A DNA stretch of 64,000 nucleotides from Candidatus Dadabacteria bacterium (GCA_009837205.1 VXTZ01000026.1:83629-147628); one strand, 5' to 3'. Positions 686 through 49,889 are shown, counted from the first letter of the stretch. Notes: a model not told the origin generated them from the sequence alone. Made by a program: numbers and translations.

Positions 686-1102
686 ATGAGGAAACACCGC
701 CTGATTTATGGATTTTCTGTTTTAGCCGTTGCAGTAGTATTGGGATTGTTCTATTACGGCACGAAGAACGATGCTAAACAATCTAATTCACACATTATTC
801 CATCCGATTTGAATTCCACCCCCTCTCTTTCCAATAAAGTGTCGGAATCGGTGCAGAAGGATAAGCCTCAGGTTTCCATTAAAAATAAGTCTCTTAAGCA
901 GCCGGAACATCGACCGGTTAAGCAAGAACCCCAGTTCCAGCCTGACACGGTTGATGGAAATCCAATAATCCTTACAAAAAAGAAAGTCGTGCTCGAAGAC
1001 GGGAAAGAAATTATGGTCTTTGAAAATGTTCCTGATTCATGGAGGACAGAGACCGAAGTACATTTTGATAAGGGGGGCAAACCTCATGTTACACATCGCT
1101 AA
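686..1102 (+). CDS. hypothetical membrane-anchored protein (N-terminal TM helix, Pro/Gln-rich linker, small C-terminal domain)
   Basis: ORF with an N-terminal hydrophobic segment (FSVLAVAVVLGLFYY). AT-rich. Directly upstream of and overlapping the metalloprotease start. No recognisable family. Confidence 0.4.
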   Translation: MRKHRLIYGFSVLAVAVVLGLFYYGTKNDAKQSNSHIIPSDLNSTPSLSNKVSESVQKDKPQVSIKNKSLKQPEHRPVKQEPQFQPDTVDGNPIILTKKKVVLEDGKEIMVFENVPDSWRTETEVHFDKGGKPHVTHR

Positions 1103-9036: not shown

Positions 9037-10056
9037 CTACGTTTCGTATATATCGCGAAGTTCTTTCAGAATATCATCTAATAGGTTGCGGAACTTTTTC
9101 CTATTTACCTTGACACTTATTTCCGGATGAGCAAGCTCTACTCGATGGTTTCCGTGCTTTCCTGTAAAGTTGCTCAGTTTTGAATCACCAGTCTTTGAAT
9201 CATGGCTTTCCAGTTTCCTTTCCATAGCCGTGTACAGGGCCAAATACAATTTGTAACGGTAATAATCGTCTTTGTTCCTATCGAATCCTAATGCCTCAAC
9301 GAGTCGGAGAGTCGTTCTCTTGTTTTTTTCTATGTCAATCTTAATATCCTCCTCGAGGCCGTTGATCAATTTCTGTAAACGATCAGCTTTTACTCTTAAC
9401 TTCTCATCGTCCGTAGGAGCTTCAGCAACTAGCGTTGCACTCACAATTGGCTCTGGTTGGATATAGATCATGCGTCCATCTATATCGAAAAAGCAGGAAC
9501 GGCTAAAAACCTCTTTAATTGGGTCTTTACTTCTCTGTTCTATTCTTATGGCAGTAAGAATCATATCGACAAACTGATCGACACTATCTTCCTCTTCGGG
9601 CCATGTACTATCTGAAGTTTTCATTGTCATTATAATTTCTCTGCCAGAGAGGCCTCCCTGTAAAAATTCCTCACTTATAATGAAACAAGTATTTTCATCC
9701 ATTATGGTCTCGCATGGAATTTCTTGCTCTATTACGACAAAAAGAGAGGAGCCGTCTTTTCGGGAATTAACTTCCTCCTTCTCTACCTCTTCAACTTTGT
9801 GCCTAAAAGAAGGGGAAATTGAATAGTGATGGAACGGACTGTATTCCTCAAAGTAAGATTTCAAGTCTGAGACTACTGTCGCTCTTGATTGTTCCCGCTT
9901 GGCAATTAATAGGGGTGCAACCTTCATTTCAGCTTGTAAAAATATCCTAGGAAATTTGAATACATGAGTGTAGCAACGCCTCTTAATTTTGCACTTTGTT
10001 GGATGCCCATTCAATCCCCCTATATACATACGTTTAAGCCCAGCTTTCGTTAGCAT
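9037..10056 (-). CDS. hypothetical 339-aa protein, low-GC; C-terminal RVELAH (Rx4H, HEPN-like) motif
   Basis: Long ORF with no recognisable family. Its GC is visibly lower (~40%) than neighbouring core genes. Lies between rsmI and the tRNA-Ser region. The C-terminal 'GNHRVELAHPE' fits the Rx4-6H HEPN motif (speculative). Confidence 0.5.
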   Translation of the reverse strand: MLTKAGLKRMYIGGLNGHPTKCKIKRRCYTHVFKFPRIFLQAEMKVAPLLIAKREQSRATVVSDLKSYFEEYSPFHHYSISPSFRHKVEEVEKEEVNSRKDGSSLFVVIEQEIPCETIMDENTCFIISEEFLQGGLSGREIIMTMKTSDSTWPEEEDSVDQFVDMILTAIRIEQRSKDPIKEVFSRSCFFDIDGRMIYIQPEPIVSATLVAEAPTDDEKLRVKADRLQKLINGLEEDIKIDIEKNKRTTLRLVEALGFDRNKDDYYRYKLYLALYTAMERKLESHDSKTGDSKLSNFTGKHGNHRVELAHPEISVKVNRKKFRNLLDDILKELRDIYET

Positions 10057-11196: not shown

Positions 11197-11655
11197 TCAC
11201 TGATCTTTCACGGTAATAGTTATTCTCTCCGAAAGCACGGGAGGTTTATGAGGTATGTGCAAATAATTACCCAGCAGCAAACGCAGTGTATGCTTCCCGG
11301 GAGCAAGGGTTATCTCCGTTTCCGTCTGCCCACCTCCGAAGTGCCTTACGTTCTCGCTGAAAGCAAGAGGTTTTTCCATATCCGGCAGATTTTCAAGATC
11401 GACTAACAGATGGTGATGCCCGGTATTTGGAACCTTGACCCCGGCCGGAGCGACCCCCATGTTCACAAGCCCAAATCTCACGGTAAAGGTCTTGCTGACA
11501 ACTTCTCCGTCTTTCGGAGAAATGATATACACCTTGGCACCCGGAGGAGATTCGGAAAAATACTCTTCCGCAAAAGCCATATTCCATGACACGGCCACGG
11601 CTATGAAAAGCAAGGAAAATGTCCTGATTATTATCATCTTGGAACCCTTAATCAT
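11197..11655 (-). CDS. secreted DUF4399-like protein (signal peptide)
   Basis: Signal peptide IIIRTFSLLFIAVAVSWNMAFA. The conserved 'GHHHLLVD' stretch is typical of DUF4399 periplasmic proteins. Confidence 0.55.
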   Translation of the reverse strand: MIKGSKMIIIRTFSLLFIAVAVSWNMAFAEEYFSESPPGAKVYIISPKDGEVVSKTFTVRFGLVNMGVAPAGVKVPNTGHHHLLVDLENLPDMEKPLAFSENVRHFGGGQTETEITLAPGKHTLRLLLGNYLHIPHKPPVLSERITITVKDQ

Positions 11656-11832
11656 GAAAACGATTGCTTATCTAAAGTACATGTTTTTTTCAGAATCGCC
11701 ACTTCACTGGAATGTCCGAAAAGGTGGAGAAAGACTGACCGGAGTCAAAGAAACAGAACCAATTCCAAGAGATATTGGGACAGAACTCTGAGCGGCGCGT
11801 TATGATGGGCCTAACCCGGGACCATAAGATTT

Positions 11833-12834
11833 CTAATTCCAGAGATCAACTACCACTCTTCCAACCTGGCCGCCCTTAAGTATAACGTCTATTTCAGGGT
11901 CAAGATCTTCGAGGGAGACTGTTCTGCAGATCCGCTCAAGAATATCGATCTTCCACTCGCCGGATATCTTTTCCCATACAAGCCGCCTTCTTCCCATCGG
12001 GCAGCTTGCAGAATCTATGCCCGCAAGCGTAACTCCCCTCAATATGAATGGATAGACATTCGTGTTGAGTTCATGGGAAGCCACATTGCCGCACGTAGTC
12101 ACAACTCCTCTTTGTCTCGTGGACTTAATAGCGGTGGCAAGTATCTCTCCGCCCACGGTATCAACCACCCCGGCCCACTGCCCCTTAAGCAGCAGCCTGC
12201 CCGAAGGGTCAGTTAAATCCTCTCTCCCGATTACTTCCTCTGCTCCCAAGTCCTCCAGAAACTGTTTCTGCCCCGCTTTTCCCGTCGAAGCCGTCACGCT
12301 GTAACCGGCTTTTCCGAGAATAGCGACGGCCATGCTGCCTACCCCTCCCGTCGCCCCGGTTACGAGAATCTTTCCGTCTTCAGGGCTTACTCCACCCTCC
12401 ACGATTCTTAACACTGACTGTGCCGCCGTAAAACCCGCGGTCCCGTACATCATCGACTCTTTTAGATCAAGCCCCGCAGGCAGGTTAACCACCCAGTCAG
12501 CCGGAACCCTCACGTATTGTCCAAATCCTCCGGAGGTATCCATTCCCAAGTCGTAGCCATGCACTATAACCTTGTCTCCAGATTCAAACTCTGCACTTTC
12601 TGAACGCTCGACTACACCGGCGGCGTCAACGCCGGGCGTATGGGGGTAATTCCTGGTAACGCCCCTGTTTCCTATGGCTGAGAGAGCATCCTTGTAGTTG
12701 AGAGATGAATATTTTACGTTTAGGAGCACCTCCCCGTCCGGGAGACTGTCTAGTTTTCTGGTCGTGATTTCCCTCGTGAATTTTTCATTTTCATCCCTGC
12801 TTACAACCATCGCCTTGAAATCATCAGAACTCAT
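11833..12834 (-). CDS. acuI: YhdH/AcuI-family NADPH:quinone/acrylyl-CoA reductase (MDR superfamily)
   Basis: KFTREITTRKLDSLPDGEVLLNVKYSSLNYKDALS...ILVTGATGGVGSMAVAILGKAGYSVTASTGK matches the YhdH/AcuI family. Confidence 0.8.
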   Translation of the reverse strand: MSSDDFKAMVVSRDENEKFTREITTRKLDSLPDGEVLLNVKYSSLNYKDALSAIGNRGVTRNYPHTPGVDAAGVVERSESAEFESGDKVIVHGYDLGMDTSGGFGQYVRVPADWVVNLPAGLDLKESMMYGTAGFTAAQSVLRIVEGGVSPEDGKILVTGATGGVGSMAVAILGKAGYSVTASTGKAGQKQFLEDLGAEEVIGREDLTDPSGRLLLKGQWAGVVDTVGGEILATAIKSTRQRGVVTTCGNVASHELNTNVYPFILRGVTLAGIDSASCPMGRRRLVWEKISGEWKIDILERICRTVSLEDLDPEIDVILKGGQVGRVVVDLWN

Positions 12835-13767: not shown

Positions 13768-15444
13768 CTATTGCGATGCGACGCTTTGCCGCTTAAGCAT
13801 GGGAAGATATTTCCCGCCAAGGAGTATATGACCCTCGCTTGAACCGGCAAGAAGCCTTTGCACGAGATATTCTCTGTCAGGCCCGAGAACGTTAACCCCG
13901 TGGTCTGACTCGACAAGGCACAGAAGCTTTATGTCGCTGCCATTTTGGGTTGCGGTCTCGTAAACCGCAGAATAGTTGAGAAGAGCAGCTTCCACGGTAC
14001 CGCAGGGAAGAGATGGATTCCGGGCTCCGGCGTGGTGTTCACTTCCCCGGAACCAGCATGGGTCAGGGTAGCCGTGGAAATGCAGAATCGACATTTCCTT
14101 CTCAATCAGAGAAGGGGCGTAAAGAGCGGAAGAGAGTGCCTGAGAGAGTATAACGTAAGTATCAAAAGACGGCCTTATATCTCTCCTCCCCAAGTCGACT
14201 CCTCTGGGTATTTGAAGATGAAGCTTTCCCTTCAAAAGGCCAATTCTGACTATATCCGAATCCGGATTCAAGTTTGTCTTATCGCATCCTGACCTTGAAG
14301 TGACAATCCATATGTCCGGAACCTGCTGATACACCGTCTCATCAGCGAGAAGGGTTCTAACATACCATCTGTCGTTCGAGGCCGCTCTTACCTCGTCGGG
14401 ATTGTAATTCGGAATCTCCTGCAGGGAATTCCACATATTCTCATCGATATATTTATCCCCATCGTATCCAGGAGGCTCGGCAAGCGCTATGAAACCGTAC
14501 GAAACCCCGGTTCTCCCGTCAAGTATTTTGTTCGCCACATCCCTGTGCGACAGGCGCTTTATCGCATCTATAAACTTCGACCCCGCAGGGAAAAGATCGG
14601 TGCTTTTGAGGTCAGCACCCAAGGTAGACAGCTTCTTGGCGTATTCAAATTCCTGCGGGTCGTACTCGCTTACGGAAAAACGCGTCAGAATAGGTGGCTT
14701 TATAGGAGCGTATATCTTCGGAATAAGCGAATAGAGCACGAAATCATCAAGCTGATCATGGGCGTATATGGAATCGGAGAGATTCATGTTTATTATCGCG
14801 AAATTCCTGCGCGAAACACCTATAACGATCTCCGACATGTTGTTTATCAGGTTTTTCAGGCCCAAGGAAATTTTTCTTTCATAGGTCGTATCCTCATTCT
14901 CAAACTCCGGGTCAAGGGACATTATCGTGATAACCTGGGTGTTATAGGGATCCTGGAGATAGCCGACGGTGAAATCGTCCGCCCATCCGCTTATCTTCAG
15001 TATGCTGCTGACCGAAAGGCTGTCCTTCCTGACAATCCTGTAGATGTTCTCGGCTACCTTGCTCAGAAGCCATCTGATCGGAGAAAGCTTCTTTTTAACA
15101 TCTATTACGGCGTTTACCTTCCTCCTAACGGACTTAAGTCCCATGAGCTTGGAAAACATTCCGTAAGATGCGTCCTCGGTGGTTGCGTCTTCCCAGGAAA
15201 TTACGTTTGCCCCGTTGCTCAGAAGCGAGTTTCTGAGTCTTTCCCTGTAAGCGTTTATCTCGGTGTTTGGGTAATTTTTCGGAAGCGGCTTGAAGGTTAC
15301 GATAACCCGCTCCGACATCTCAGTCGGATTTTTAGGGTTAACCAGGTTCTTTATCTTCGGCATTCCGGAAAGCGCCGCTATGGTCCGCAGATCTAAATCC
15401 GCAATTCCTTGACTTTCATTCATAAAAAAGACAACCTCACACAA
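13768..15444 (-). CDS. conserved hypothetical 558-aa protein, first gene of operon with two oxidoreductases
   Basis: Long ORF (likely start MNESQG at ~15423). A 13-nt gap to the downstream dehydrogenase gene. No motif recognised. Confidence 0.55.
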   Translation of the reverse strand: MCEVVFFMNESQGIADLDLRTIAALSGMPKIKNLVNPKNPTEMSERVIVTFKPLPKNYPNTEINAYRERLRNSLLSNGANVISWEDATTEDASYGMFSKLMGLKSVRRKVNAVIDVKKKLSPIRWLLSKVAENIYRIVRKDSLSVSSILKISGWADDFTVGYLQDPYNTQVITIMSLDPEFENEDTTYERKISLGLKNLINNMSEIVIGVSRRNFAIINMNLSDSIYAHDQLDDFVLYSLIPKIYAPIKPPILTRFSVSEYDPQEFEYAKKLSTLGADLKSTDLFPAGSKFIDAIKRLSHRDVANKILDGRTGVSYGFIALAEPPGYDGDKYIDENMWNSLQEIPNYNPDEVRAASNDRWYVRTLLADETVYQQVPDIWIVTSRSGCDKTNLNPDSDIVRIGLLKGKLHLQIPRGVDLGRRDIRPSFDTYVILSQALSSALYAPSLIEKEMSILHFHGYPDPCWFRGSEHHAGARNPSLPCGTVEAALLNYSAVYETATQNGSDIKLLCLVESDHGVNVLGPDREYLVQRLLAGSSEGHILLGGKYLPMLKRQSVASQ

Positions 15445-15520: not shown

Positions 15521-16270
15521 TTAACGATTGCTACGGATTTTTTCAATCTCGCGAAGCATCTCTTCCCGGACTACACCTTCAAGCTTTTCGCCACCCTCTT
15601 TTCCCTTTGGAAAGCTTGCGGTATCTATAGGAGGAAGGATTCTGACTACAATATCCCTGTCGGTATTAAGTTCGTAGGAACCCTTTTTCCTTATATCCTT
15701 GCCTCCCCATATGATCATCGGCACAACCGGCACCCTTGAAAGCGAAGCCATAAAAAAACCGCCCTGCTTAAAGGGAAGAAGTTCTCCATCCTCGCTTCTT
15801 GTGCCCTCTGGGGCAATAATCACTGAAGGCCCATTTCTTATTTTCCTTACGATTTCCCGGACTCTGTTCGTATCTCCAACCGAACCGTCCCTCGCAACGA
15901 AATATTGTCCGCTAAGTGAGCACACCCAGCCGATAAAAGGAATCGAGGCGACTTCATTCTTCATGACCGCCCTCCATTCGAAAGGCAGCGCCGCGGAGAA
16001 AACAGGTATGTCTAGGGAACTCTGGTGGTTGAACATCACTATGAAAGGAGCTTGCGGGAAGTTTTCAGTTCCTTTTACGTCAAGCCGCACTCCGCAGGAC
16101 CAAAGAACTGTTTTTCCCCAAGGCCGAACGGAGCACTTTATAAGATGCCTTACGGCAAGAAGTGACATCACGATTCCCACGCTGCCCCAGAATGCCGTAA
16201 ACAGAGACGAAAGAATTATTGCCACAATGCTTCTTATTTTCTTCATCACTGCTACTCCGTCGCGTCGCAA
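15521..16270 (-). CDS. plsC: 1-acyl-sn-glycerol-3-phosphate acyltransferase
   Basis: N-terminal TM, the acyltransferase H(X)4D block 'NHQSSLD' and the PEGTRS motif. Start probably MKKIRS (~16244). Confidence 0.85.
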   Translation of the reverse strand: MRRDGVAVMKKIRSIVAIILSSLFTAFWGSVGIVMSLLAVRHLIKCSVRPWGKTVLWSCGVRLDVKGTENFPQAPFIVMFNHQSSLDIPVFSAALPFEWRAVMKNEVASIPFIGWVCSLSGQYFVARDGSVGDTNRVREIVRKIRNGPSVIIAPEGTRSEDGELLPFKQGGFFMASLSRVPVVPMIIWGGKDIRKKGSYELNTDRDIVVRILPPIDTASFPKGKEGGEKLEGVVREEMLREIEKIRSNR

Positions 16271-16292
16271 AAAGAGTTTCCGGGATCCTGGC

Positions 16293-17174
16293 CTATGCGG
16301 GAACTATAATGTTTACTCCCTGCTCCTCAATCCGTATATCATGTTTTCCGGAACGAAGAAGAAATGTCTCCCCGTCCATGTGAGCCGGAAGATCGGTAAA
16401 GGTTTCAAACCGCAACTGCCTTGCCCTTACTATACTGACCTCTCGAAGTCCCTCATGGCGGCCCTCAAGCACCTTTTGTATCTTAAAAAGCCTTCCCAGA
16501 GAACTCATGTCGCTTATTATATGGATGTCGAGATATCCGTCGAATATGTCAGCCCCAGGAGCTAGGTTGAACTTTCCACCCTGAAAAGGGCCGTTTGAAG
16601 CGCCGAAGAGAAGCAGTCTTTCGCCCGCGACATCGACTTCTCCATCCATCTCGGAGAAAAAACCCTGGAACCGAAACGCCTCGATCACCGCTCCAACAAC
16701 GTAACCGAAGGAACCGAAACGCCTGAGGCCCAGATCCCCGAAATCGTGCGCTACGGCCCCGTCCATCCCTACCCCGAAACCGTTTATAAAGCATTTTTCG
16801 TCAACAAAAGCCACATCAGCTTTTCTCGTTCGGCCAGAAAAAATATTGTCCACCGCCGCACGCGTATTAAGGGGAATACCGGCTGCCTTCGAGAAATCGT
16901 TCCCGCTGCCTCCCGGAACTATTCCCAAAACAGCTTCGGTTCCGTGAATCGAACTTACGATCTCACTTGACGTACCGTCTCCTCCAAGAGAAATCATGTG
17001 GGTAAAGCCTTCACCAAGCCCTTCCGCGGCGATCTTCGCGGCGTGCCCGGGGAACTGCGTAAGTCTCACCTCGTGGACAATTTCTTTTGCTTCAAAAGCA
17101 CTACGGATCTGTTCAAGTGTTGGCCCAGGCGGTTTTGTACCCGCCTTGGGATTTGCTATTACAAGGTATTTCAT
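16293..17174 (-). CDS. diacylglycerol-kinase-catalytic-domain lipid kinase (YegS/BmrU family)
   Basis: MKYLVIANPKAGTK...MISLGGDGTSSEIVSSI...GIVPGGSGNDF is the DAGK_cat signature. Confidence 0.8.
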   Translation of the reverse strand: MKYLVIANPKAGTKPPGPTLEQIRSAFEAKEIVHEVRLTQFPGHAAKIAAEGLGEGFTHMISLGGDGTSSEIVSSIHGTEAVLGIVPGGSGNDFSKAAGIPLNTRAAVDNIFSGRTRKADVAFVDEKCFINGFGVGMDGAVAHDFGDLGLRRFGSFGYVVGAVIEAFRFQGFFSEMDGEVDVAGERLLLFGASNGPFQGGKFNLAPGADIFDGYLDIHIISDMSSLGRLFKIQKVLEGRHEGLREVSIVRARQLRFETFTDLPAHMDGETFLLRSGKHDIRIEEQGVNIIVPA

Positions 17175-23690: not shown

Positions 23691-24050
23691 CTAGCCGAAT
23701 TTCTTTTCAATATCTTCCTGCTCTTCCTTACACTCTATGCAAAGAGTAGTCTCCGGTCTTGCAATCAGTCTCTGCTCCGAGATCTCCTCTTCACACACCT
23801 CACAGATTCCGTAAGAACCATTCTCAAGTCTAACGAGCGCGTCGCGTATTTTCCGAAGCAGCTTTCTCTCCCTGTCCCTTTCCCGCAGTTCAAGAACCCT
23901 GTTCGACTCGGATAGCGCCCTGTCAAGTGGATCTGGGAAAGAATTGGACCCCTTACTCATCCTATCAACAGTATCATAGGCAATGCCCAGTATATCGGAC
24001 ATCTTCTGAATCAGGATGGTTCTTACCGTCTCCCTGGTTTCTGCCTTCAT
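23691..24050 (-). CDS. dksA: RNA polymerase-binding transcription factor DksA (C4 zinc finger)
   Basis: NGSYGICEVCEEEISEQRLIARPETTLCIECKEEQE is the DksA/TraR C4 finger. Coiled-coil N-terminus. Confidence 0.85.
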   Translation of the reverse strand: MKAETRETVRTILIQKMSDILGIAYDTVDRMSKGSNSFPDPLDRALSESNRVLELRERDRERKLLRKIRDALVRLENGSYGICEVCEEEISEQRLIARPETTLCIECKEEQEDIEKKFG

Positions 24051-25010: not shown

Positions 25011-26056
25011 ACTCTTTTAAAACTATAGAATGGAAAGACGACAGGGTCTTAATGATTGACCAGAGAAAGCTTCCGGGAGAGGAAGTCTACGTTGAATGCA
25101 CTACTTTTGAAGAGGTGGCCGAATGTATAAGGAAACTGGTTATCAGGGGAGCCCCGGCGATAGGAATAGCGGCCGCCATGGGAATGGCTCTCGGAGCCGC
25201 GGGTATCGGAAACGATTGCTCCTATGAAAATTTCGAAGAGCGCATGAAAGCCATATCGGATCACCTGGCCCTGACGCGACCGACAGCCGTAAATCTGTTT
25301 TGGGCCATCGCCAGAATGAACAGACTGATTTCCAAGTGCAGAGGCAAAGAAATTGAAGAGATAAAAAACCTTCTCATAACCGAGGCGATCAATATACAGA
25401 AAGAAGACATTGAGATATGCATGCAGATCGGGGAAAACGGATCCAAACTCATAAGAGAAAACTCTGTCATACTCACGCACTGCAACGCCGGAGGACTCGC
25501 CACCGCCGGTTATGGAACAGCTCTAGGGGTAATAAGGTCAGCCTTTAACCAAGGCAAGAATATAAGCGTAATATCATCAGAGACAAGACCCGTTCTCCAA
25601 GGAGCGAGGCTCACTACGTGGGAACTTGAGCGGGATGGAATCCCGGTCCGTTTGATAACCGACAGCATGGCCGGGCATCTGATGAGTAAGGGGATCGTGA
25701 ATTCGGTCGTGGTCGGGGCTGACAGGGTAGCTTCAAATGGAGATACGGCAAACAAGATAGGAACCTATTCCCTCTCCGTCCTGGCCAAGCATCACGGCAT
25801 TCCCTTTTACGTAGCGGCCCCCACTTCAACCATAGATACCGAATGCTTAAGCGGAGAGGATATTATAATTGAGCAAAGGGAACCCGAAGAAGTAACGCAC
25901 ATAGACGGGAAAAGAATAAGTGCGGAAGTAACCGCAATCAATCCCGCTTTTGACATTACACCGGCCGAAAATATCGAATGCCTGATAACTGAAGTCGGAC
26001 TGTTTAAAAAACCCTATGCTAAATCTCTCGGCAGACTTAAAAAGAAAGATCAGTAA
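25007..26056 (+). CDS. mtnA: S-methyl-5-thioribose-1-phosphate isomerase (eIF-2B-like)
   Basis: IEWKDDRVLMIDQRKLPGEEVYVECTTFEEVAECIRKLVIRGAPAIGIAAA is the MtnA consensus. Confidence 0.9.
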   Translation: MNSFKTIEWKDDRVLMIDQRKLPGEEVYVECTTFEEVAECIRKLVIRGAPAIGIAAAMGMALGAAGIGNDCSYENFEERMKAISDHLALTRPTAVNLFWAIARMNRLISKCRGKEIEEIKNLLITEAINIQKEDIEICMQIGENGSKLIRENSVILTHCNAGGLATAGYGTALGVIRSAFNQGKNISVISSETRPVLQGARLTTWELERDGIPVRLITDSMAGHLMSKGIVNSVVVGADRVASNGDTANKIGTYSLSVLAKHHGIPFYVAAPTSTIDTECLSGEDIIIEQREPEEVTHIDGKRISAEVTAINPAFDITPAENIECLITEVGLFKKPYAKSLGRLKKKDQ

Positions 26057-26529
26057 TCTCCCCTTTCAATTTCCTCCTGAGCTTCGACGCTCAGTTTCGT
26101 AAAGGGCATGACCATCAGCCTCTCTTCGCCTATTTTTTCCCCTGTAACCTCGCAGAAACCATATTCCCCGTTTTCAATCCTCTTTAGAGCATCATCTATC
26201 TGGTGCAGTTTGCTGCGCTCCCTGTTCGAAAGAGTAAGGGCAAGTTCTCTCTGCCTGTCTTCGGATGCGTGATCATAAAAATCTCCGACATTGAAACGCA
26301 GATGATCCGATTCCTCTTTCATTGATCGGGTTACATCTTTAAGCAGTTCCTTTCTCATCTCTTTAAGCATGGCAGTCATCTGGTTAAGGAACTTCTTTGT
26401 ATATTTTCTGGGGTTGGTTCTCCTCGACTTAGCTTTTGTTCCGGTCGCCGCAGAAGAACTTTCCTTCGAGGCCTTTTTTTCAGGTTTCTCCTTTTTTACT
26501 CTGGGCACGTTGACTCCTCCGGTAATCAA
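26050..26529 (-). CDS. DksA/TraR-family paralogue lacking the C4 zinc finger, with basic N-terminal extension
   Basis: ENGEYGFCEVTGEKIGEERLMVMPFTKLSVEAQEE has a single Cys only. The coiled coil is conserved. The N-terminus is K/R-rich. Confidence 0.7.
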   Translation of the reverse strand: MITGGVNVPRVKKEKPEKKASKESSSAATGTKAKSRRTNPRKYTKKFLNQMTAMLKEMRKELLKDVTRSMKEESDHLRFNVGDFYDHASEDRQRELALTLSNRERSKLHQIDDALKRIENGEYGFCEVTGEKIGEERLMVMPFTKLSVEAQEEIERGDY

Positions 26530-28390: not shown

Positions 28391-29740
28391 TTAGCCCTGT
28401 TCCGTTTCTTTTTGAAGAACTTCCTTGGGTTTTCCGATACGGAGAATTCTTATAACGTCTTCAAGCTGGTGTATCAAAAAGAGGGTAAGAGCAAAAGACG
28501 TAGCGAAAAGAACTAGGGAGTTTCCTCCGATTATCGCTATGAGAACTAACCCGGCCGAATAATAATTTCTCCTCCCCAAAAAGCGAAGACGGGCAAGCAG
28601 TTTCCTTAGGAGGGAAAGTTCCTCGGGATTGATATGCTTGTCGACTTCAAAGTACGCAACCAGACTTCCAGAATCTGTGTACTTTATCAGAAAGTAAAAC
28701 GACCATATCAGAAACAGGATGAAGATGATGATATTATAGGTTCCTAGGATCACCGCAACGGTGCTTCCGGTCTGAAGATAATATCCAACAGGAACTCCGA
28801 TCAGGAAGGAAAGCACTGTGAACTGGTCACTTATGGTATCAACCCACTGCCCTTTTTTTGTCTCCATAAGCTTTATTCTCGCAACTTCTCCGTCACACCT
28901 GTCCAAAACAGTTGCCACCTGCATGAAAAGAGCACCGAGCACCGGATGACCAAGGGCGTAAAGCGGCCCACAGAGCACCCCTATCAGGTTAATCAGAACG
29001 CTAGCAGCGTTAGGCGTAAGAGATGTTCTTATCAGGAGCTTGCTCAAAGGAAGAGACATCCGGCCGTTTATATTTCTGGCTATCCATCCGGTAGCCGTTT
29101 TACCTACGTGAGAAAAGATGATTCTTTCCGCTTCTTTTCGAGATTCCTTGGTATCCGAAAGGCGATACCAGTACCCGCTGTCGGCACTGAAGATTCTCAT
29201 ACGGTTCCGGGTGGCCTCGTCACCAAGCCAAGTATTGAGCCCGGCAGCCGAAAGCACAGATGGGACTTCTGTGAAGTTTACGGAGAAAGCGCCAAAGACG
29301 CTGCTTCCTCCACCGAAATACTTGGTTACGTAACCGGTTTCCCTGTCCATGCCAACAACAGGATCAGCGTCCTGCTGAACAAGCACAGAAAACTCATCCT
29401 CGCGGCAATCAGATGAATCACGAATGAATTTTTCAAGGGAATTGGAGTTTGTGACAACCAGAGAGGATTCTAAAATAAGAACCCTGCCCGAATCTACCGA
29501 CAGCGACTCTCCAGGTGGGACCCAGTTTATGTCCGATGTGATTCTCGGGTCATCAATAAGCAGGTTTTTTAGAAGACCCGCGTTGTCGGTAATTATATGA
29601 AACTGCTCAGTTCCGGCACGTTGACAATTTATTATAATTCTTTTGAGTTGAGGGACTTGCGCTATCGATTTGCTTGGGAATTTGGATAGATCCTCGCCAT
29701 TTGTTCCTGTGCCAGAACAAAGTACAATAGCGTCTTTCAT
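28391..29740 (-). CDS. bifunctional-architecture protein: N-terminal nucleotidyltransferase-like domain fused to CDP-alcohol phosphatidyltransferase membrane domain (IPCT/DIPPS-like)
   Basis: C-terminal 'DRCDGEVARIKLMETKKGQWVDTISD' fits D-G-x2-A-R-x8-G-x3-D-x3-D, followed by multiple TM helices. The N-terminal ~230 aa has an NTP-transferase-like fold with a degenerate G-x-G-T motif (LCSGTGTNG). Confidence 0.7.
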   Translation of the reverse strand: MKDAIVLCSGTGTNGEDLSKFPSKSIAQVPQLKRIIINCQRAGTEQFHIITDNAGLLKNLLIDDPRITSDINWVPPGESLSVDSGRVLILESSLVVTNSNSLEKFIRDSSDCREDEFSVLVQQDADPVVGMDRETGYVTKYFGGGSSVFGAFSVNFTEVPSVLSAAGLNTWLGDEATRNRMRIFSADSGYWYRLSDTKESRKEAERIIFSHVGKTATGWIARNINGRMSLPLSKLLIRTSLTPNAASVLINLIGVLCGPLYALGHPVLGALFMQVATVLDRCDGEVARIKLMETKKGQWVDTISDQFTVLSFLIGVPVGYYLQTGSTVAVILGTYNIIIFILFLIWSFYFLIKYTDSGSLVAYFEVDKHINPEELSLLRKLLARLRFLGRRNYYSAGLVLIAIIGGNSLVLFATSFALTLFLIHQLEDVIRILRIGKPKEVLQKETEQG

Positions 29741-29746
29741 GGCAGA

Positions 29747-30529
29747 TTATTCGGAGGAGTCAACAACTCTCAGAAGATTTGGGGCACGGTATTCCTTTTT
29801 CAAGAATCTGTCAGCCTGTTTTCTCGCCCTGAAAAGATCTAGCGGACAGTCGACATCCATCCAGTAAAGTTCGCCTATATCGAGGGGCTTGATTTTATAC
29901 CCCTTGCTTATAAGCCTGTGTATTGAGGAAATGTACCATTTGCCTTCGGCACCGGGATTCCTCATCTCTTCCTCAACCGCCCTTTTGAGCAGTTCAACAC
30001 CCGTATCCCTGAACATTCTTATGCCGACTGATTCGGCGGAGGTCTCAGCGTTTGAAATCTCCTTGCTTATCTTCGTGATTCTGCTGTCGTTGACAACAAC
30101 TTTCATGTCCTCCCTTTCATATCGAGATCTCTTTTTTATGGGAAGACAGATTTTTTCATCCCTGACTGCAAGCGCCTTGTCCAGAACACCTATCTCGTAT
30201 ACATCGTCTCCGTTCATGACCACTAAATCTTCGTCAAATTCGCTCCTGGCTATCCAGAGAGACACAAGGCTGTTTGTAGATTGATAGAATGGGTTGTAAA
30301 GGGTGTTGATTCTCATTCCCAGGCCATCGTAATTCCTTAGGAAATCCTCCACTCTCTCAAAACCGAAACCCACGACGATCACAACTTCGTTTATGCCGCA
30401 GTCCCTTATAAGGTTTATCTGGTGTTCAAGTATGGATATATTCCCAATATCAAGAAGACACTTGGGCTTGTCGTGAGTGTAGGGATATAGTCTAGTTCCC
30501 CTACCCGCTGCAAGTATTATAGCTTTCAT
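29747..30529 (-). CDS. sugar/alcohol-phosphate cytidylyltransferase (LicC/IPCT-type, NTP_transf_3)
   Basis: MKAIILAAGRGTRLYPYTHDKPKCLL... and the C-terminal 'YWMDVDCPLDL' are typical of CTP:phosphocholine and CTP:inositol-1-phosphate cytidylyltransferases. A 6-nt gap to the downstream CDP-alcohol transferase gene. Confidence 0.8.
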   Translation of the reverse strand: MKAIILAAGRGTRLYPYTHDKPKCLLDIGNISILEHQINLIRDCGINEVVIVVGFGFERVEDFLRNYDGLGMRINTLYNPFYQSTNSLVSLWIARSEFDEDLVVMNGDDVYEIGVLDKALAVRDEKICLPIKKRSRYEREDMKVVVNDSRITKISKEISNAETSAESVGIRMFRDTGVELLKRAVEEEMRNPGAEGKWYISSIHRLISKGYKIKPLDIGELYWMDVDCPLDLFRARKQADRFLKKEYRAPNLLRVVDSSE

Positions 30530-30727
30530 AAGTCAGATTTTTTAAATAGAAAGTCATACACCCGTGGAATCGAGAAAAGCAGACGATAACCCCGGCGAAA
30601 AACACGAGGAATAACGCCTTATTTCTTCAACATCCTCCGGGAGCTAATGTAACTATAGGAGCTAGGTATGTCAAACAGGGCTTTAATCCGCAAGTCTTAC
30701 GCGGGTTTTGGCTGAAACAAGGGGAAG

Positions 30728-33615: not shown

Positions 33616-34812
33616 ATGAACCGGCCGGATTATAATTTTTCCCTGATAAACCGACTTCCCCCTTACGTGCTAGGCGTAGTCAACGAACTTAAACACAAAG
33701 CACGCGCCAGAGGAGAGGATATAATCGACCTCGGCATGGGGAACCCTGATCAGGCAACGCCGGACCACATAGTGGAGAAACTGCGCGAGGCAGTAAGTGA
33801 ACCCAGAAACCACAGATACTCCGCTTCCGCCGGACTGCCCAAACTTCGTCTGGCCATAACCGACTGGTACAGAAGAAAATACGATGTTGACCTTGACCCG
33901 GATTCCGAAGCCGTCGTCACGATAGGATCAAAAGAAGGCATATCGCATTTAATGGTCTCCATACTCTCCCCAGGAGATATGGCGATAGTTCCAAATCCCT
34001 CCTACCCGATACACAGCTACTCCGTAATCATAGCAAGAGGAGACACTCACAGTTGTCCCATGGGGAAGAAAGAAGACTTGATACAGTCAATAGAAAAAGC
34101 GATAAAGGAAGTGTGGCCAAAACCCAAAGTCCTTATTCTTTCATTCCCCAACAACCCGACAACACAAGTCATGGACCTTGATTTCTTCGAGAAAATCTGT
34201 GACCTGGCACGTGAGACGGGTCTTATAGTAGTGCATGATCTGGTTTACGCAGAGCTGTGTTATGACGGATACAAGGCCCCGAGCATAATGCAGGTAAAGG
34301 GAGCCAAAGACGTTGCGGTGGAATTCTATTCACTTTCCAAAACCTACAGCATGCCCGGCTGGAGGGTAGGCTTCATGGTGGGAAATCCAGAAATCGTTTC
34401 CGCGCTCAAAAGGATAAAAAGTTACCTTGACTACGGAATATTCCAGCCGATCCAGATAGCCGCAATTACCGCTCTCAACGGACCTCAGGAACCTGTAGAG
34501 CGCATAAGGGAAACCTACAGGTCCAGAAGAGACAAGCTGATCGAATCATTCGCAAGGGCCGGATGGGAAATCCCAAAACCGAAAGCCACCATGTTCGTAT
34601 GGGCACAGATACCTGAAGAGTTTGCGGAAATGGGGTCGCTTGAATTCTCGAAACTTCTTATAGAGAAATCAAAAGTCGCCGTATCCCCCGGAGTGGGATT
34701 CGGAAACTACGGAGAAGGATTCGTAAGACTTGCACTTGTTGAGAACGAAAACAGAATAACTCAGGCGGCAAGGGGAGTTAGGAAGCTTCTTCAGGGCGCC
34801 CACGGCTACTAA
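33616..34812 (+). CDS. class I/II PLP-dependent aminotransferase (alanine/aspartate transaminase-like)
   Basis: [43 protein letters not shown] and '[14 protein letters not shown]' (PLP-Lys region). Confidence 0.85.
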
Positions 34813-36719
34813 AAAGCCTGCCCTATGCTTATAAAAATCTTGAATCTGTCGTCTCTTTCCTCATCCTCGGGGTTTAGAAGGTAGCCGAAATCCGCCCTGA
34901 TCGGCCCGATAATCGTATGGTATCTCAATCCGGCACCGGCCGCGTACTTCAGGTTGGAAGCACTGAAACCGAAACTCTTTGAATAAACATTTCCGTAATC
35001 GAAGAAAATTACCGCTCCAAGCTTGTTAAAAAGTCCGAAGCGGGCTTCAGCGTTGCCAATGATAATAGAGTTGCCCCCAAGAGGATCCCGATCCGAATTA
35101 AGCGGACTCAGATGCTGAAATGAATAACCCCTCATGCTTGCACTGCCTCCGGCGAAGAATCTTTTGAAGATCGGCACGTTAAGCGGGTCAGTTCCCCCAA
35201 GTGTGCTTATATTTCCAATCGTCGCCCTTTTTCCCAGAACGATCCCGGAAACACTCTTGTAGTACCTTAACTCGGCCAGAAACTTCAGGTAATCGGTGCG
35301 GGCGGAGCTAGTGGTCTGAATCGGTCTTTCCATGAAGAAAAACAGCCGCATTCCACTGGTAGGATTTATAAGGCTGTCGGTCAGGTCATACTCAATTCCC
35401 AGATCAACAGCCGTCAGGAAAACGCTGTCGCGGGCACTTTCAATCGGCGTTCTTACCACCTGAGAGTCTATATTCGCAAATACGACGTTCAGGGAACTGA
35501 AAAGTGTGAGATAATCAAAAAACTCCTTGGACAAGGTACTGTTGAAATCGAAACTCAAGCCCTCATAGCCCGGAAAATCATCCCTTCTCACGTCAAGCAA
35601 AAAAGCAAGACTGGAGTTTCTGCCGACTAAGTGGGGCTGATCAAGTCTGGCCAGTAAACCCCGTGTCAGGGATGAATAACTGGAAGTGACCTGAAGGATC
35701 CTTCCGCCGTCAAAAAAATTCCTCTGGTTCCAAGATAGCTGCGCCCTTAGATTGTCCTCCGTGGCGTATCCAACTCCAAGCCTTATCGTTCCGAGTTTCC
35801 TTTCAGTAACGCTGTATATAGTCCGAACCTCGAAGTTCCGCCGGTCGTATTCAGTATCCACTATAACGGAATTGAAAAGTCCGGTTTCAAAAATGTTCGC
35901 CCGCGATTTCTGAGTTTCTTTGAGAGAAAACAGGTCCCCTTGCTCGTACTCTATCTCCCGTTCGAGAAGTCTGGTGGCAATATCGGAATTTCCCCTGAAC
36001 ATCACGTCGCCGAAATAATATTCCTGGCCCGGGTCGATGATGAATTCAACATTAACCTCTCTGCTCCTCAGGCTCACAATCGCTTCGGATTTTACATCCG
36101 GCAGAGGATAACCCCTATCGGAGAACAACTCCGTGATAAGAACTTTTGACCTCTGGTAGCTTATCTGGGAAAAAGGTTTCCCCTCTTCCAAGAGGATTAC
36201 CTCGGCGACATCGGAGACGTAATCGTCCGGGTGGTTACCGAGAACCGCTATGTTCAAAGTCTTCACTATTACGGGATCCCCTTGCTCCACCCTTATTTCT
36301 ATATCCACTTTTCGGTTTCCATCCCGGAAATCTAAGGTATGGGTTACTGTGGAACCGTAATAACCATGTTCCCTGAGAACCTGCTCTATTCTTTTTATAT
36401 CGTCCTCAAGGAACTGCTCGTTGAATTCCGGACGTTTTCTCCAAGGTCTCCTTGAGGGAAAAGGAGTTATCATGGAGTCCTTTATTCTCTCGAGTTCTAT
36501 GTCTTTTAACCCCTTTATCTTGATCCCGGAGATAAAAACCGTTTCGTCCTTCTCCGCTTCCTCGGCTCTAACATCCAAAGCCAAGGGAAAAAGGACGAGA
36601 AGAAAAAAAAGCCCCGAGAGCAAAAAGGCGACGCTTTGAGGTATGCAAAGGAGTTCGCGCGGGAAGTTGCTGCTATAGTTGCGGTCAGAAAAAGAAGATA
36701 TAGGACTATCCATTTCCAT
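34809..36719 (-). CDS. Omp85-family outer-membrane protein (POTRA domains + 16-strand barrel; BamA/TamA-like)
   Basis: The POTRA segment '[27 protein letters not shown]...' (RIKDSMI identical) is followed by a surface-antigen barrel ending in an aromatic (…IGQAF). The ORF track extends to 36896. Start set at MEMDSP just before the signal peptide. Confidence 0.8.
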
Positions 36720-36998
36720 TAATGTTAACAAGGACAAATTGACTTTGACAAGAACAAACCGAAAAAACCGGCGGGTTAGAAACAGACGCAGACACTTTAG
36801 CTGTACAAGAATCAACGATAACCGGCCGTGCGCGTAAAACCACATGCAGAGCGATTCCGGACTAGGAGACAATTGACAAAATTGCCGAACCCGCACCGCC
36901 TAAGAAGCAGCAATTCGCATGTATAGCGGGAAAAAACAAGACCGCTTATACATAATAATACGGCAATATGATATTATTTTTACCGAGGTCGTTTAACC

Positions 36999-37458: not shown

Positions 37459-38172
37459 CTAGCGCTTTTTCTGCGCTGAAAAGTTACTATCAATAAACAT
37501 CTGCCTGGCAGGATCTCCTGGATCCTCCCTGCGTTTGCGGCGCAGATCCTTCGCCGTCTTTTTTTCCAGAACAGGTTTATGAATATATTCAATTTCTATT
37601 GTTCTTTTTTTAGAGTTCACGTTTGCAAGTACTACTGTGTCCGAAAGATTCCACGACAGAACCTCGTAAGAGAACATCTTCTCCCGCTCGAAAGCGTCGC
37701 CGAGAACATTAGCAAGATCACCGACAAGTTCGCTTTTTGCGAACGCAAAACGGGTCTCATCCTCAAAACTGAATAAGATGGAACTTGACATAAGATTGTC
37801 TTTATAAAATTCAAGCCGGGTTTCATGGTCGGGCGGCGGGTCAAGAGCAACTCCGGACAAGGAACCGTCCAGAACAACTTTTCGTAGATCGTTTGAGTAC
37901 TCGCGATCAGAAATAACCTTGAGTTTGGAAGATTCGATCAGATTAAGTGCGTCTTTTTTAGAAATCCCGAATTCAAAACCGTGAGGAATCCTGAGATTCA
38001 CTTGGCTTCCCTCAAGAGGAAAGGGAAAGAAGAAGCAAACTGAAAAAATAAGCGTCAGCCAAATTTTCGCGCAATGCATAAGGTTTTCCCGTGATATAAA
38101 CCGCTTAAACCCGTGGTATACTTTGGAACCTGTGATTCTAACTGTTTTATACAAGCTTGTTAAACGCAGCAC
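37459..38172 (-). CDS. hypothetical secreted protein (probable start MHCAKIWL ~38079)
   Basis: Signal-peptide-like WLTLIFSVCFFFPFPLEGS. No family recognised. Confidence 0.45.
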   Translation of the reverse strand: MLRLTSLYKTVRITGSKVYHGFKRFISRENLMHCAKIWLTLIFSVCFFFPFPLEGSQVNLRIPHGFEFGISKKDALNLIESSKLKVISDREYSNDLRKVVLDGSLSGVALDPPPDHETRLEFYKDNLMSSSILFSFEDETRFAFAKSELVGDLANVLGDAFEREKMFSYEVLSWNLSDTVVLANVNSKKRTIEIEYIHKPVLEKKTAKDLRRKRREDPGDPARQMFIDSNFSAQKKR

Positions 38173-38184
38173 GGTGAAACTTTA

Positions 38185-38652
38185 ATGGAAACGATCATAG
38201 GAGTAATCGGAGCAGCTAACGCAAGTGAGAAGGAAGAAAGAACTTCGGAAGAGGTCGGAGTTCTTATTGCCAAAGGGGATTGTTTTCTGCTTTGCGGCGG
38301 AATGGGAGGAGTTATGGAAGCCGCGTGCCGAGGAGCAAAATCAGCCGGAGGCACCACAATCGGGATCCTCCCCGGACCCGAAGCCTCCTTGGCCAACAGA
38401 TTCATCGACATACCAATAGTTACAGGGATGGGTGAAGCAAGAAACGTGATAGTAGCAAAGTCAAGCCATTCTATAATCGCCATTGGAGGCAGTTTCGGCA
38501 CCCTGTCGGAGATATCGTTCGCACTTAAGTCCGGAATTCCCGTTATCGGGCTTGACACCTGGGATGTCTCTGAGGAAATTATCAAATGCGAAACTCCGGA
38601 AGAAGCAGTGAGAACAGCCTTTGAGCTATCCTCCCTCAGGAAAAGGGCCTGA
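38185..38652 (+). CDS. TIGR00725/SLOG-family Rossmann-fold protein (LOG-like)
   Basis: IGVIGAANASE...LLCGGMGGVMEAACRGAKSAGGTTIGILPG matches TIGR00725. Confidence 0.7.
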   Translation: METIIGVIGAANASEKEERTSEEVGVLIAKGDCFLLCGGMGGVMEAACRGAKSAGGTTIGILPGPEASLANRFIDIPIVTGMGEARNVIVAKSSHSIIAIGGSFGTLSEISFALKSGIPVIGLDTWDVSEEIIKCETPEEAVRTAFELSSLRKRA

Positions 38653-39209
38653 TGAAAACCTCCCCGAACAAGCAAAAAGAAATGGCACTGGAAGAGATAG
38701 GAAGTTACATAAGACGCGTTCCCGATTTCCCGAGTAAGGGAATACTTTTCTACGATATAACCACGCTGATTAAAAACGCCGGAGCTTTTCAAAAATCCGT
38801 TGACATGATGGCGGAAATGCTCGCCGGCAAGGAGATAACCTCATTTGTCGCGCCCGAGAGCCGAGGTTTTATCTTCGCTTCCGCCTTATCCTATAAGCTT
38901 GGAAAAGAATTGATCCTAGTGAGGAAGCCCGGCAAGTTGCCAAGCGACACCGCAAGCGTTTCATATGACCTTGAGTATGGAAAAGACGTTCTGGAAATTC
39001 ACAAAGACGCGATAAACGGTAAAAGCAGAGCAGTAATCGTCGATGATCTCCTGGCCACGGGGGGAACAGCGCACAGTACCGGGCGCCTAGTGGAAGAACT
39101 AGGCGGAAGCGTCGCCGGGTACCTCTTTCTTGTAGAACTTACGGGACTCAAGGGGGCCGAGGCTCTTTCCCCCCACCCGGTCTGGTCCCTACTTAAAATG
39201 CCGGGGTAA
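38652..39209 (+). CDS. apt: adenine phosphoribosyltransferase
   Basis: PRPP-binding loop VIVDDLLATGGTA. Type I PRTase size. Confidence 0.9.
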   Translation: MKTSPNKQKEMALEEIGSYIRRVPDFPSKGILFYDITTLIKNAGAFQKSVDMMAEMLAGKEITSFVAPESRGFIFASALSYKLGKELILVRKPGKLPSDTASVSYDLEYGKDVLEIHKDAINGKSRAVIVDDLLATGGTAHSTGRLVEELGGSVAGYLFLVELTGLKGAEALSPHPVWSLLKMPG

Positions 39210-49888: not shown

Positions 49889-49889
49889 A

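Follow-up and report, generated by a model that had tools for sequence, protein, structure and literature searches.

This work examined a pair of adjacent genes in a 64,000-nucleotide (nt) stretch of DNA from Candidatus Dadabacteria bacterium (GCA_009837205.1, VXTZ01000026.1:83629-147628), which is referred to here as the window and from whose first letter all positions are counted. Both genes lie on the minus strand. The first one, gene 1 (29747-30529), encodes a stand-alone IPCT-like nucleotidyltransferase of 260 amino acids (aa), catalytically intact according to its Pfam (PF00483 and PF12804), NCBIfam, PDB and hhalign matches, with the motifs ILAAGRGTRL (core AAGRGTRL), KPKCL, NGDDVY and WMDVD. 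Gene 2 (28391-29740, stop codon at 28391-28393, as given by the listing of open reading frames, ORFs) encodes a protein of 449 aa in which a nucleotidyltransferase-fold domain is fused to a cytidine diphosphate (CDP)-alcohol phosphotransferase. Residues 1-210 (29111-29740) correspond to a pseudo-IPCT domain recognized with AlphaFold2, Foldseek and hhalign, which contains the motif LCSGTGTNG, and residues 211-449 (28394-29110) comprise a juxtamembrane helix and the polytopic CDP-alcohol phosphotransferase domain, recognized by PF01066 and by its match to AF2299 of Archaeoglobus fulgidus. A regular expression located the catalytic signature D280-x2-D283-G284-x2-A287-R288-x8-G297-x3-D301-x3-D305 at 28826-28903 (DRCDGEVAR-IKLMETKK-GQWVDTISD), and this pattern, D-x2-D-G-x2-A-R-x8-G-x3-D-x3-D, has a single match in the six-frame translation of the whole window. 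By direct reading of the sequence, exactly 6 nt (29741-29746, minus strand, taa-tctgcc-atg) separate the stop codon of gene 1 (TAA) from the ATG of gene 2, and we infer that the two genes are co-transcribed and that their translation is possibly coupled. The two ORFs, the gap between them, all the peptide strings quoted for them and the full CDP-alcohol signature of the downstream gene were thus found as described in an earlier model-made annotation of this DNA (hereafter the original prediction). Upstream of the pair, the 198-nt spacer between panD and gene 1 contains a sigma-70-like site, TTGACA-17-TACATT (30646-30674, minus strand, 10/12 positions in a consensus scan), which by its match to the consensus is a candidate for the pair's own promoter. 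Downstream, about 160 nt lie between the stop codon of gene 2 and a convergent SNF transporter gene, whose end is at 28229, where no hairpin resembling a terminator was predicted.

The product of gene 1 scored 52.9 bits (4.9e-14, cut-off 21.2) against PF00483 and also matched PF12804 (2e-11); with a score above the gathering threshold and with the G-x-G-[TS]-R loop, the PK lysine and the acidic metal sites all kept, it belongs to the PF00483 family. In NCBIfam, where all its matches were far under the cut-offs, gene 1 obtained 100.6 bits with the nucleotidyltransferase half of archaeal GlmU-like enzymes and 82.5 bits with the IPCT half of IPCT/DIPPS (aligned 1-238), and AglF was also matched. 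Among solved structures, the lowest E-value belonged to LicC (1jyk, 5.2e-15), in an alignment confined to residues 1-104, and full-length alignments were obtained with ST0452, with Thermotoga maritima 4jd0 (5e-11) and with the IPCT of A. fulgidus (2xme, 6e-9); the 2-aminoethylphosphonate (AEP)-type nucleotidyltransferase 6pd1 was matched at 2.2e-8. The best matches among the gathered sequences were the N-domains of intact bifunctional relatives (up to 74.7 bits), for which the E-values were 2.3e-49 with A. fulgidus IPCT/DIPPS and 2.2e-29 with IPCT alone. Profile comparison with these N-domains by hhalign (99.9%, E 4.4e-35) extended over 229 columns with all motifs kept, and the lid segment of gene 1, MKVVVNDSRITKISKEI, parallels that of the A. 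fulgidus IPCT, TKIRVEDGRVAKIGKDL. The ratio of nonsynonymous to synonymous substitution (dN/dS) of 0.01-0.05 indicates very strong purifying selection. From these comparisons we conclude that gene 1 is predicted to encode an active IPCT-like cytidylyltransferase, for which inositol-1-phosphate would be the most likely substrate; the upstream gene had been described as a LicC/IPCT-type cytidylyltransferase, and its complete catalytic motifs and its full-length alignments to IPCT domains and solved IPCTs agree with this. Gene 1 does not qualify as a LicC-type phosphocholine cytidylyltransferase, since full-length similarity to LicC was lacking and the half that would bind choline phosphate aligns to IPCTs and IPCT-like domains.

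The N-terminal domain of gene 2 is in a different state. No Pfam model, nucleotidyltransferase models included, matched residues 1-210. The AlphaFold2 model, calculated from a 24-sequence family alignment, has a predicted local distance difference test score of ~85-93 in this domain. In Foldseek the whole protein aligned with the IPCT-DIPPS structure 4mnd over 461 columns that cover both domains (E 6.3e-14), and the N-domain alone superposed on HddC, ST0452, GMPP, RmlA and MurU over ~230-250 columns; because of these alignments, the domain is predicted to have a complete nucleotidyltransferase fold. It is also recognizably homologous to the intact IPCT domains of the bifunctional relatives (hhalign 99.35%, E 6.6e-21, 202 columns), which makes it possible to follow the loss of each catalytic motif. 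The G-loop AAGxGsRL has become asGtGxxgE, with its Arg gone (GxGxR to GTGxxG); the lysine of PKPL and the DDATKV lid are gone as well; the D(H) site LLMaDHvF reads LVlqSNlv (DH to SN), and the DxD site WqDVDTp reads YWxRLS. On the other hand, residues G10, G12, R34, A42 and G43 are invariant in the family alignments of 23-24 sequences, and a dN/dS of 0.10-0.17 shows that purifying selection persists. Since the catalytic motifs were lost and the sequence is nevertheless constrained, the domain seems to be retained for a non-catalytic role, which by analogy may consist in scaffolding, in dimerisation or docking, or in ligand sensing. There is precedent for such a role in the non-catalytic cytosolic domain of AF2299 and in the inactive GMPPA subunit, which regulates GMPPB. 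The N-domain is not a recent duplicate of gene 1, because it has no detectable similarity to it (no phmmer match; hhalign 17% over 47 columns only), and each of them relates separately to intact IPCT domains. Judging from these sequence relationships, the N-domain is a pseudoenzyme domain descended from the active IPCT domain of a bifunctional ancestor. The suspicion that the degenerate first domain was probably a non-catalytic remnant is therefore borne out by its homology, its replaced catalytic residues and its dN/dS; with every catalytic motif replaced, it does not appear to be the fully active cytidylyltransferase that had been named as the contrary outcome.

The membrane domain of gene 2 retains its catalytic site. 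PF01066 was the sole Pfam match in the protein (residues 243-345, 1.7e-9, 38.7 bits, cut-off 22), and this score together with the motif at residues 280-305 places gene 2 in the CDP-alcohol phosphotransferase superfamily; the two Pfam families named in the original prediction, PF01066 and PF12804, were thus recovered in gene 2 and gene 1, respectively. Residues D280, D283, G284, A287, G297, D301 and D305 show no variation in either family alignment (A1 or A2, 23-24 sequences), and R288 is invariant in A1 and conserved in at least 90% of A2. The PDB sequence matches were AF2299 (4.7e-19, the best) and A. fulgidus IPCT/DIPPS (AfIPCT/DIPPS; 9e-16), which the family profile matched at 1.8e-25 and 1.5e-19, respectively. 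These matches span the region from the juxtamembrane helix to transmembrane helix (TM) 4, which carries the DIPPS/AF2299-type motif TGWIARxINxxxSL, and beyond TM4 gene 2 is not alignable to the DIPPS of A. fulgidus (AfDIPPS) or AF2299. The family has there a conserved and specific cytosolic loop, YTDSGSLVAYF...GRRNYYS, of which the motifs YTxSGSLV and [RK]R[DN]xF/Y are common to a far wider set of relatives. About six TM helices are present in the AlphaFold2 model, and a conserved Arg cluster (R386, R390, R391) lies ahead of TM5. The dN/dS of the domain is 0.06-0.17.

Regarding family assignment, NCBIfam ranked IPCT/DIPPS first for gene 2 (91.2 bits), followed by AIPS (51.5) and PIPS (32.9). 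The equivalog cut-off of the IPCT/DIPPS model NF041135, 580 bits, was not reached by gene 2 (91.2 bits over residues 176-320) or by gene 1 (82.5 bits); this model is specific for Thermococcales and clear bifunctional relatives themselves score just 236-278 bits. Assignments of gene 2 as PgsA, PssA or cardiolipin synthase were rejected, since the scores were negligible and far below the cut-offs (archaetidylserine synthase 18 bits, cut-off 240; ClsA 17, cut-off 240; PssA 16, cut-off 107; PgsA 14, cut-off 304). An exhaustive search of 1.84 billion representative sequences returned 3,966 relatives of gene 2 at E<=1e-3 and 1,396 at E<=1e-10; the N-domain is degenerate in most of the top 150, and the G-loop is intact in a minority. 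The JM1-TM4 region was used for a neighbour-joining tree with 200 bootstraps, in which the Dadabacteria sequences, including the pelagic ones, formed one clade in 191/200 replicates, and AfDIPPS or AF2299 fell within it in only 4/200. Forms with intact and with degenerate N-domains are interspersed in this tree, within a radiation of more than 1,000 clusters, and its deep branching is weak (AF2299 was basal in 56/200 replicates). As judged by the NCBIfam ranking and the tree, which agree, the membrane domain of gene 2 is a clade of its own in the DIPPS/AF2299 radiation, far from PgsA and PssA; it groups with the DIPPS-type enzymes, as had been proposed, and the phylogeny does not place it within the phosphatidylglycerophosphate or phosphatidylserine synthases.

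How widely the pair is kept was evaluated with a one-genome-per-species scan, which found 134 relatives, from which 80 species-level loci were kept (numbers with L designate loci). All 134 lie on contigs that have the Dadabacteria synteny, their sources being sponge, marine, soil, groundwater and vent samples. Over 21 kb, the window is 98.4% identical to one of these contigs, from 'Candidatus Dadabacteria bacterium RHO1_bin_23' (L030). All 80 are Dadabacteria-type metagenome-assembled genomes (MAGs); a few carry other phylum names yet share the synteny, and the mixed names are explained because the NCBI taxonomy places Candidatus Dadabacteria, as a class, inside Thermodesulfobacteriota. Full Dadabacteria synteny was also seen under names such as Candidatus Poribacteria, uncultured Spirochaetia and Ignavibacteriales (L021, L023, L039, L053, L071, L072, L079 and L084), probably in mis-binned or mis-labelled MAG contigs. 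Gene 1 is directly upstream of gene 2 in 79 of the 80 loci, with identities to the window of 57-99% for gene 1 and 40-99% for gene 2; only L071 departs from this, with another IPCT-like gene located downstream of gene 2 instead. According to record titles and metadata, the sources are sponge, coral, seawater, soil, groundwater and sediment, with few hot springs or vents. A sister family (P0127-type, 35% identity) constitutes a marine pelagic lineage, in which the panBCD-gene 1-gene 2-SNF synteny is kept on contigs of ~1.04 Mb, a size that fits with the streamlined genomes described for pelagic Dadabacteria (PMC8115339). Taken together, the gene pair is a conserved and probably core feature of the whole group as sampled by sequence, mostly in non-thermal habitats. 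A functional link of the pair to panBCD or to the SNF transporter was also considered and rejected; this adjacency is uninformative because synteny extends over the entire 20-kb region throughout the group, and the 198-nt spacer with its promoter-like site separates panD from gene 1.

Since the whole region is syntenic, only insertions immediately beside the pair are informative about its product. One of them is a gene with the PF05118 domain, located downstream of gene 2 in the same direction and after a gap of 20-120 bp in 32 of the 80 loci (e.g. L005, L006, L037, L039-L051; in L003 it occupies 11347-12144). It scored 348.5 bits (E 1.8e-104) with NF052565, the model of the ornithine-lipid acyl 2-hydroxylase OlsC, under the cut-off of 450, and 122 bits with LpxO, and is considered here an OlsC-like Fe/2-oxoglutarate enzyme. 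All 32 loci belong to the group whose gene 2 is at most 58% identical to that of the window. In other loci the pair is followed by one or two genes for glycosyltransferases of family 4 (GT4; L039:12216-14472, L071:11894-14081, L073:11437-12585, L080:5600-7797, L084:11439-13829), one of which has PimA (1.3e-13), MshA and PimB' as best solved relatives, and another Alr3699 and MshA; given the great size of the GT4 family, this evidence is weak. L071 and L080 additionally encode a second IPCT-like nucleotidyltransferase, which shares 44% identity with the N-domains of the bifunctional relatives. As for the intact bifunctional genes themselves, in two of the three contexts examined (L087:6904-10380 and L088:6857-10409, groundwater 'Deltaproteobacteria' MAGs) they form a three-gene unit with a flippase-like PF03706 gene, which is divergent and HpnL-like (113.7 bits), and with a radical-SAM gene downstream; PlsB is nearby in one of them. 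The radical-SAM protein has ~320 aa and the PTO1314 family as its best model, far below cut-off, and the same type (45% identity) was found in L071 (5405-6388), 3.6 kb upstream of gene 2. Finally, the gene 1-gene 2 pair occurs twice in the MAG MFD09513_ilm_asm_bin6, on separate contigs (L055 and L063), the second copy being without panBCD and ~1.4 kb from a gene for a 903-aa GH63/mannosylglycerate-hydrolase-like protein.

Previous studies with related systems help to place these findings. AF2299 of A. fulgidus (PDB 4o6m, 4o6n and 4q7c) is, like gene 2, a fusion of an N-terminal cytidylyltransferase-like, non-catalytic cytosolic domain with a membrane transferase; it is described as binding CDP-glycerol and as not processing lipids (PMC4634129). 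Gene 2 has this type of architecture, a cytosolic cytidylyltransferase-like domain followed by a juxtamembrane helix and a six-TM transferase, and AF2299 is its best sequence match among solved structures and the one with the highest target-normalised TM-score (0.73-0.75), although 4mnd has the best Foldseek E-value. Both proteins share the JM1 motif (GWIAREINRKVSLRIS and GWIARNINGRMSLPLS). However, the N-domain of the Dadabacteria protein can be aligned to full-length IPCT domains along ~200 residues, no alignment is obtained beyond TM4, and AF2299 lies outside the Dadabacteria clade, so that orthology to gene 2 is unsupported. The bifunctional IPCT/DIPPS enzymes (A. fulgidus AF0263, PDB 4mnd; NF041135) have two domains in the same order as gene 2, and their NCBIfam family ranks first for gene 2 and is also a strong match for gene 1. 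An intact bifunctional relative, P0134, bridges both groups, with matches to 4mnd at 2.3e-49 and to gene 2 at 1.9e-35, and the Foldseek alignment covers both domains of 4mnd, the domain architecture that the original prediction had recognized. These enzymes differ from the Dadabacteria pair in that their fused IPCT domain is competent, whereas that of gene 2 is dead and gene 1 presumably provides the IPCT activity in trans; the pair, in addition, has no linked inositol-phosphate synthase (MIPS) gene in the loci scanned, and its hosts are mesophilic by sample source.

Other known systems resemble the pair in having separate genes for the cytidylyltransferase and the CDP-alcohol phosphotransferase, in operon-like arrangement, a comparison made by description only. 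In Rhodothermus marinus, as summarised in PMC4587543 citing Jorge et al., IPCT and BEPIS use CDP-inositol for the synthesis of dialkylether glycerophosphoinositol, and in Bacteroides vulgatus a putative NTP-transferase/CDP-alcohol phosphatidyltransferase/HAD cluster was proposed as a lipid route (PMC9246714). In both of them, as far as these accounts describe, it is the head group and not the lipid that is CDP-activated (PMC4587543; PMC9246714). The Bacteroides clusters have a flippase-like PF03706 gene nearby (PMC9246714), the family found here beside the bifunctional relatives. In contrast to the Dadabacteria pair, the BEPIS and B. vulgatus clusters include or adjoin a MIPS gene. The PIP synthases (PgsA1) and AIPS, next-best families for the membrane domain, share its catalytic signature, but gene 2 is below their cut-offs (180 bits for AIPS and 170 for PIPS), and these enzymes use CDP-archaeol or CDP-diacylglycerol as donors and have no cytosolic domain.

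Based on these comparisons, we propose that the pair constitutes a two-step Kennedy-type pathway, in which gene 1 would form CDP-inositol or another CDP-polyol and gene 2 would transfer the head group to a membrane lipid alcohol, a reading to which we give a probability of about 0.5. In the first step, gene 1 would convert cytidine triphosphate (CTP) and a phosphorylated alcohol, likeliest L-myo-inositol-1-phosphate, to the CDP-alcohol, CDP-inositol. In the second one, the membrane domain of gene 2 would pass the alcohol-phosphate, through its intact signature site, from CDP to a hydroxyl acceptor with release of CMP, and the dead N-domain would act in one of the ways suggested above (scaffold, dimerisation/docking module or ligand sensor). 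The preferred acceptor would be a diacyl- or alkylglycerol, giving a phosphoinositol-type lipid comparable to that of the Rhodothermus IPCT and BEPIS, which in some lineages may then be 2-hydroxylated on its acyl chain and glycosylated. The original prediction had left the product as either a solute or a lipid head group. Both substrates are proposals, and the context leans to the lipid: the group-wide conservation in mesophiles and on the ~1.04 Mb pelagic contigs, and the OlsC-like, PimA-like and flippase-like neighbours, make a lipid head group more probable than di-myo-inositol phosphate (DIP), and the lean also has a precedent in the CDP-inositol-dependent lipid synthesis of BEPIS and of the B. 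vulgatus cluster. The hyperthermophile-type DIP solute, in turn, fits these organisms poorly.

Several observations weigh against a lipid product made from inositol. None of the 33 loci of the window's own clade has the OlsC-like or GT4 neighbours, and since the region is syntenic across the whole group their adjacency elsewhere could be historical. For gene 1, generic sugar-1-phosphate nucleotidyltransferases scored about equal to IPCT in NCBIfam. As to the supply of inositol-1-phosphate, known CDP-inositol systems usually have the MIPS gene in the same cluster; here, a Pfam scan found none among ~45 ORFs of the window, and tblastn of the window and of 88 loci, up to 10 kb from the module, found none either, a negative that is weak because the query was an approximate Mycobacterium tuberculosis Ino1 sequence. 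Within this coverage, the earlier remark that the window has no inositol-phosphate synthase holds. Neither was MIPS found within 8 kb of the intact bifunctional relatives, in three contexts. On the acceptor side, AfDIPPS and AF2299, the nearest relatives with a solved structure, do not act on lipids (PMC4634129). In addition, Clarke et al. linked enzymes of six TM helices to soluble acceptors, and the presence of three or four further helices to lipid acceptors (PMC4634129), so that the ~six helices of gene 2 point to the former, and the R386, R390 and R391 cluster would suit a phosphorylated soluble acceptor.

These last points are those that sustain the main rival, a compatible-solute synthase, which we regard as possible but unlikely. 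In it, CDP-inositol or CDP-glycerol would be transferred to inositol-1-phosphate or glycerol-3-phosphate and the product then dephosphorylated, as in Archaeoglobus, yielding DIP, glycerophosphoinositol or diglycerol phosphate. The best characterised and solved homologues use soluble substrates (PMC4634129), the six-TM architecture is in agreement with it, and the Arg cluster could bind the phosphate of the acceptor. The proximity of the second pair copy to a mannosylglycerate-hydrolase-like GH63 gene, in one MAG, also points in this direction, and IPCT/DIPPS genes have been proposed as an adaptation to pressure or stress in non-thermophilic deep-sea Thaumarchaeota. Nevertheless, the distribution of the pair speaks against it. 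DIP is a marker of (hyper)thermophiles, and the hosts of the pair come from sponges, open ocean, soil and groundwater; moreover, the whole group carries the pair, which persists even on the ~1.04 Mb pelagic contigs, and this would be unusual for a stress solute. Gene 2 reaches only 91 of the 580 bits of the equivalog cut-off, its C-terminal region, on the acceptor side, gives no alignment with AfDIPPS or AF2299, neither MIPS nor a phosphatase gene is linked to the pair in the loci scanned, and the OlsC-like hydroxylase and the flippase-like gene are neighbours of lipid type.

It is also conceivable, with somewhat less in its favour, that the chemistry is the same and the alcohol is another one, such as phosphocholine, phosphoethanolamine or 2-aminoethylphosphonate, transferred to diacylglycerol or to a glycan. 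The best PDB E-value of gene 1 was that of LicC, a CTP:phosphocholine cytidylyltransferase, and the match to the AEP-type 6pd1 and the lack of a linked MIPS are compatible with this idea. However, LicC is matched by the nucleotide-binding half only, the substrate-side half being aligned to IPCTs; no choline/ethanolamine kinase or phosphonate genes were seen beside the pair in the loci examined, and the TGWIARxINxxxSL motif in the juxtamembrane/TM1-TM4 region is of the DIPPS/AF2299 type. The same idea may draw on the phospholipid genes of the window, as no cdsA was detected among the ~45 ORFs scanned with Pfam, even at the uppS-dxr position, which would fit reliance on a Kennedy-type route. In the window, uppS (PF01255) is followed after 1 nt by dxr (49148-51047), with no cdsA between them; the common bacterial order is uppS-cdsA-dxr-rseP. 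A bolder form of the phosphoinositol-lipid pathway, which for now seems to us speculative and rather doubtful, is that the pair constitutes a defining and possibly essential membrane head-group route of Dadabacteria, mesophilic and even genome-streamlined bacteria, in which the fossil IPCT domain would have been reused for docking of the free cytidylyltransferase or for product sensing and would channel the CDP-alcohol to the membrane site, with 2-hydroxylation and glycolipids like the phosphatidylinositol mannosides in some lineages. In its sharper version, this route would partly replace CDP-diacylglycerol chemistry, as no cdsA was seen at the usual uppS-dxr position.

Less probable still is the decoration of an envelope polymer, in which a CDP-polyol would be used to add polyol-phosphate to a glycan or glycolipid in a teichoic-acid-like or capsule-like manner. 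The GT4 genes and the second nucleotidyltransferase after the pair in several lineages, and the BamA-like and RlpA-like envelope genes of the region, could be read in this way; but the polyol-phosphate polymerases known to us belong to families other than the CDP-alcohol phosphotransferases, which are known for single transfers, and no polymer export genes were seen beside the pair in the loci examined. Finally, it is very improbable that the N-domain of gene 2 is still active with non-canonical residues, so that two activating enzymes would serve a duplicated head-group pathway, because in spite of its complete and confidently predicted fold, its purifying selection and its conserved G10-x-G12, K33/R34, D64 and R66, the G-loop Arg, the PK Lys, the D(H)/GDD site, the lid and the DxD site are replaced throughout the family, no Pfam nucleotidyltransferase model matches it, and an intact enzyme of the same subfamily is encoded directly upstream in 79 of 80 loci (6 nt away in the window).

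Part of this picture was already known. A non-catalytic cytidylyltransferase-like domain on a CDP-alcohol transferase is known from AF2299 (PMC4634129), and BEPIS already offers a case of an IPCT and a transferase encoded by separate genes. What is new is the combination of a dead, full-length IPCT domain with an intact stand-alone IPCT directly upstream, the strict conservation of this pair across an entire uncultured and largely mesophilic lineage, and, in the loci scanned, the lack of a linked MIPS together with lipid-type accessory genes in related lineages. We found no published description of the gene pair in the literature on Dadabacteria and inositol, on Nemesobacterales, or in the paper on marine Dadabacteria with its supplements. 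So far, CDP-inositol chemistry comprises the DIP solutes of hyperthermophiles, the ether lipids of one thermophilic bacterium (BEPIS) and a hypothesis in gut Bacteroidetes, and the pair is a strictly conserved and strongly selected relative of it in a mostly mesophilic group common in sponges and in the open ocean. Should the pair make a membrane lipid, its product would be a candidate marker for the chemotaxonomy of Dadabacteria and the pathway one more case of bacterial phospholipid synthesis with an activated head group; if gene 2 encodes just another DIPPS/AF2299-like enzyme, the finding is an ordinary one. The pair is also a clean natural case of a catalytic domain turned into a pseudoenzyme, with its function moved to a neighbour gene, and the interspersed intact and dead forms in more than 1,000 protein clusters are suitable for the study of the roles of dead domains.

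The remaining genes of the window are housekeeping, and some of them deserve mention. An adjoining pair on the minus strand (15521-17174) encodes a PlsC-type acyltransferase (PF01553) and a DAGK/YegS-type lipid kinase (PF00781 and YegS_C), and sits between rpsB and a 558-aa ORF without Pfam match (13768-15444). A membrane protein of 276 aa (61216-62046, minus strand) has a domain of the 3-oxo-5-alpha-steroid 4-dehydrogenase/polyprenol-reductase type (PF02544, 5.5e-53), which is unusual in a bacterium. The BamA-like ORF (34809-36896, minus strand; POTRA and Omp85 in its relatives) has 695 aa from a GTG start, and its true start is probably ~65-90 codons downstream, as the orthologues have 605-631 aa. 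Genes for DksA/TraR-type zinc-finger proteins lie on either side of prmA-mtnA (23691-24050 and 26050-26529, both minus strand) and are kept in all relatives examined. ORFs of 457, 339, 237 and 210 aa without Pfam match occur at 1020-2393 (plus strand), 9037-10056 (minus strand) and 37459-38792 (minus strand), and a Fic/DOC-domain protein with an N-terminal DUF4172 is encoded between a gidA-like gene and glyQ (56994-58145, plus strand).

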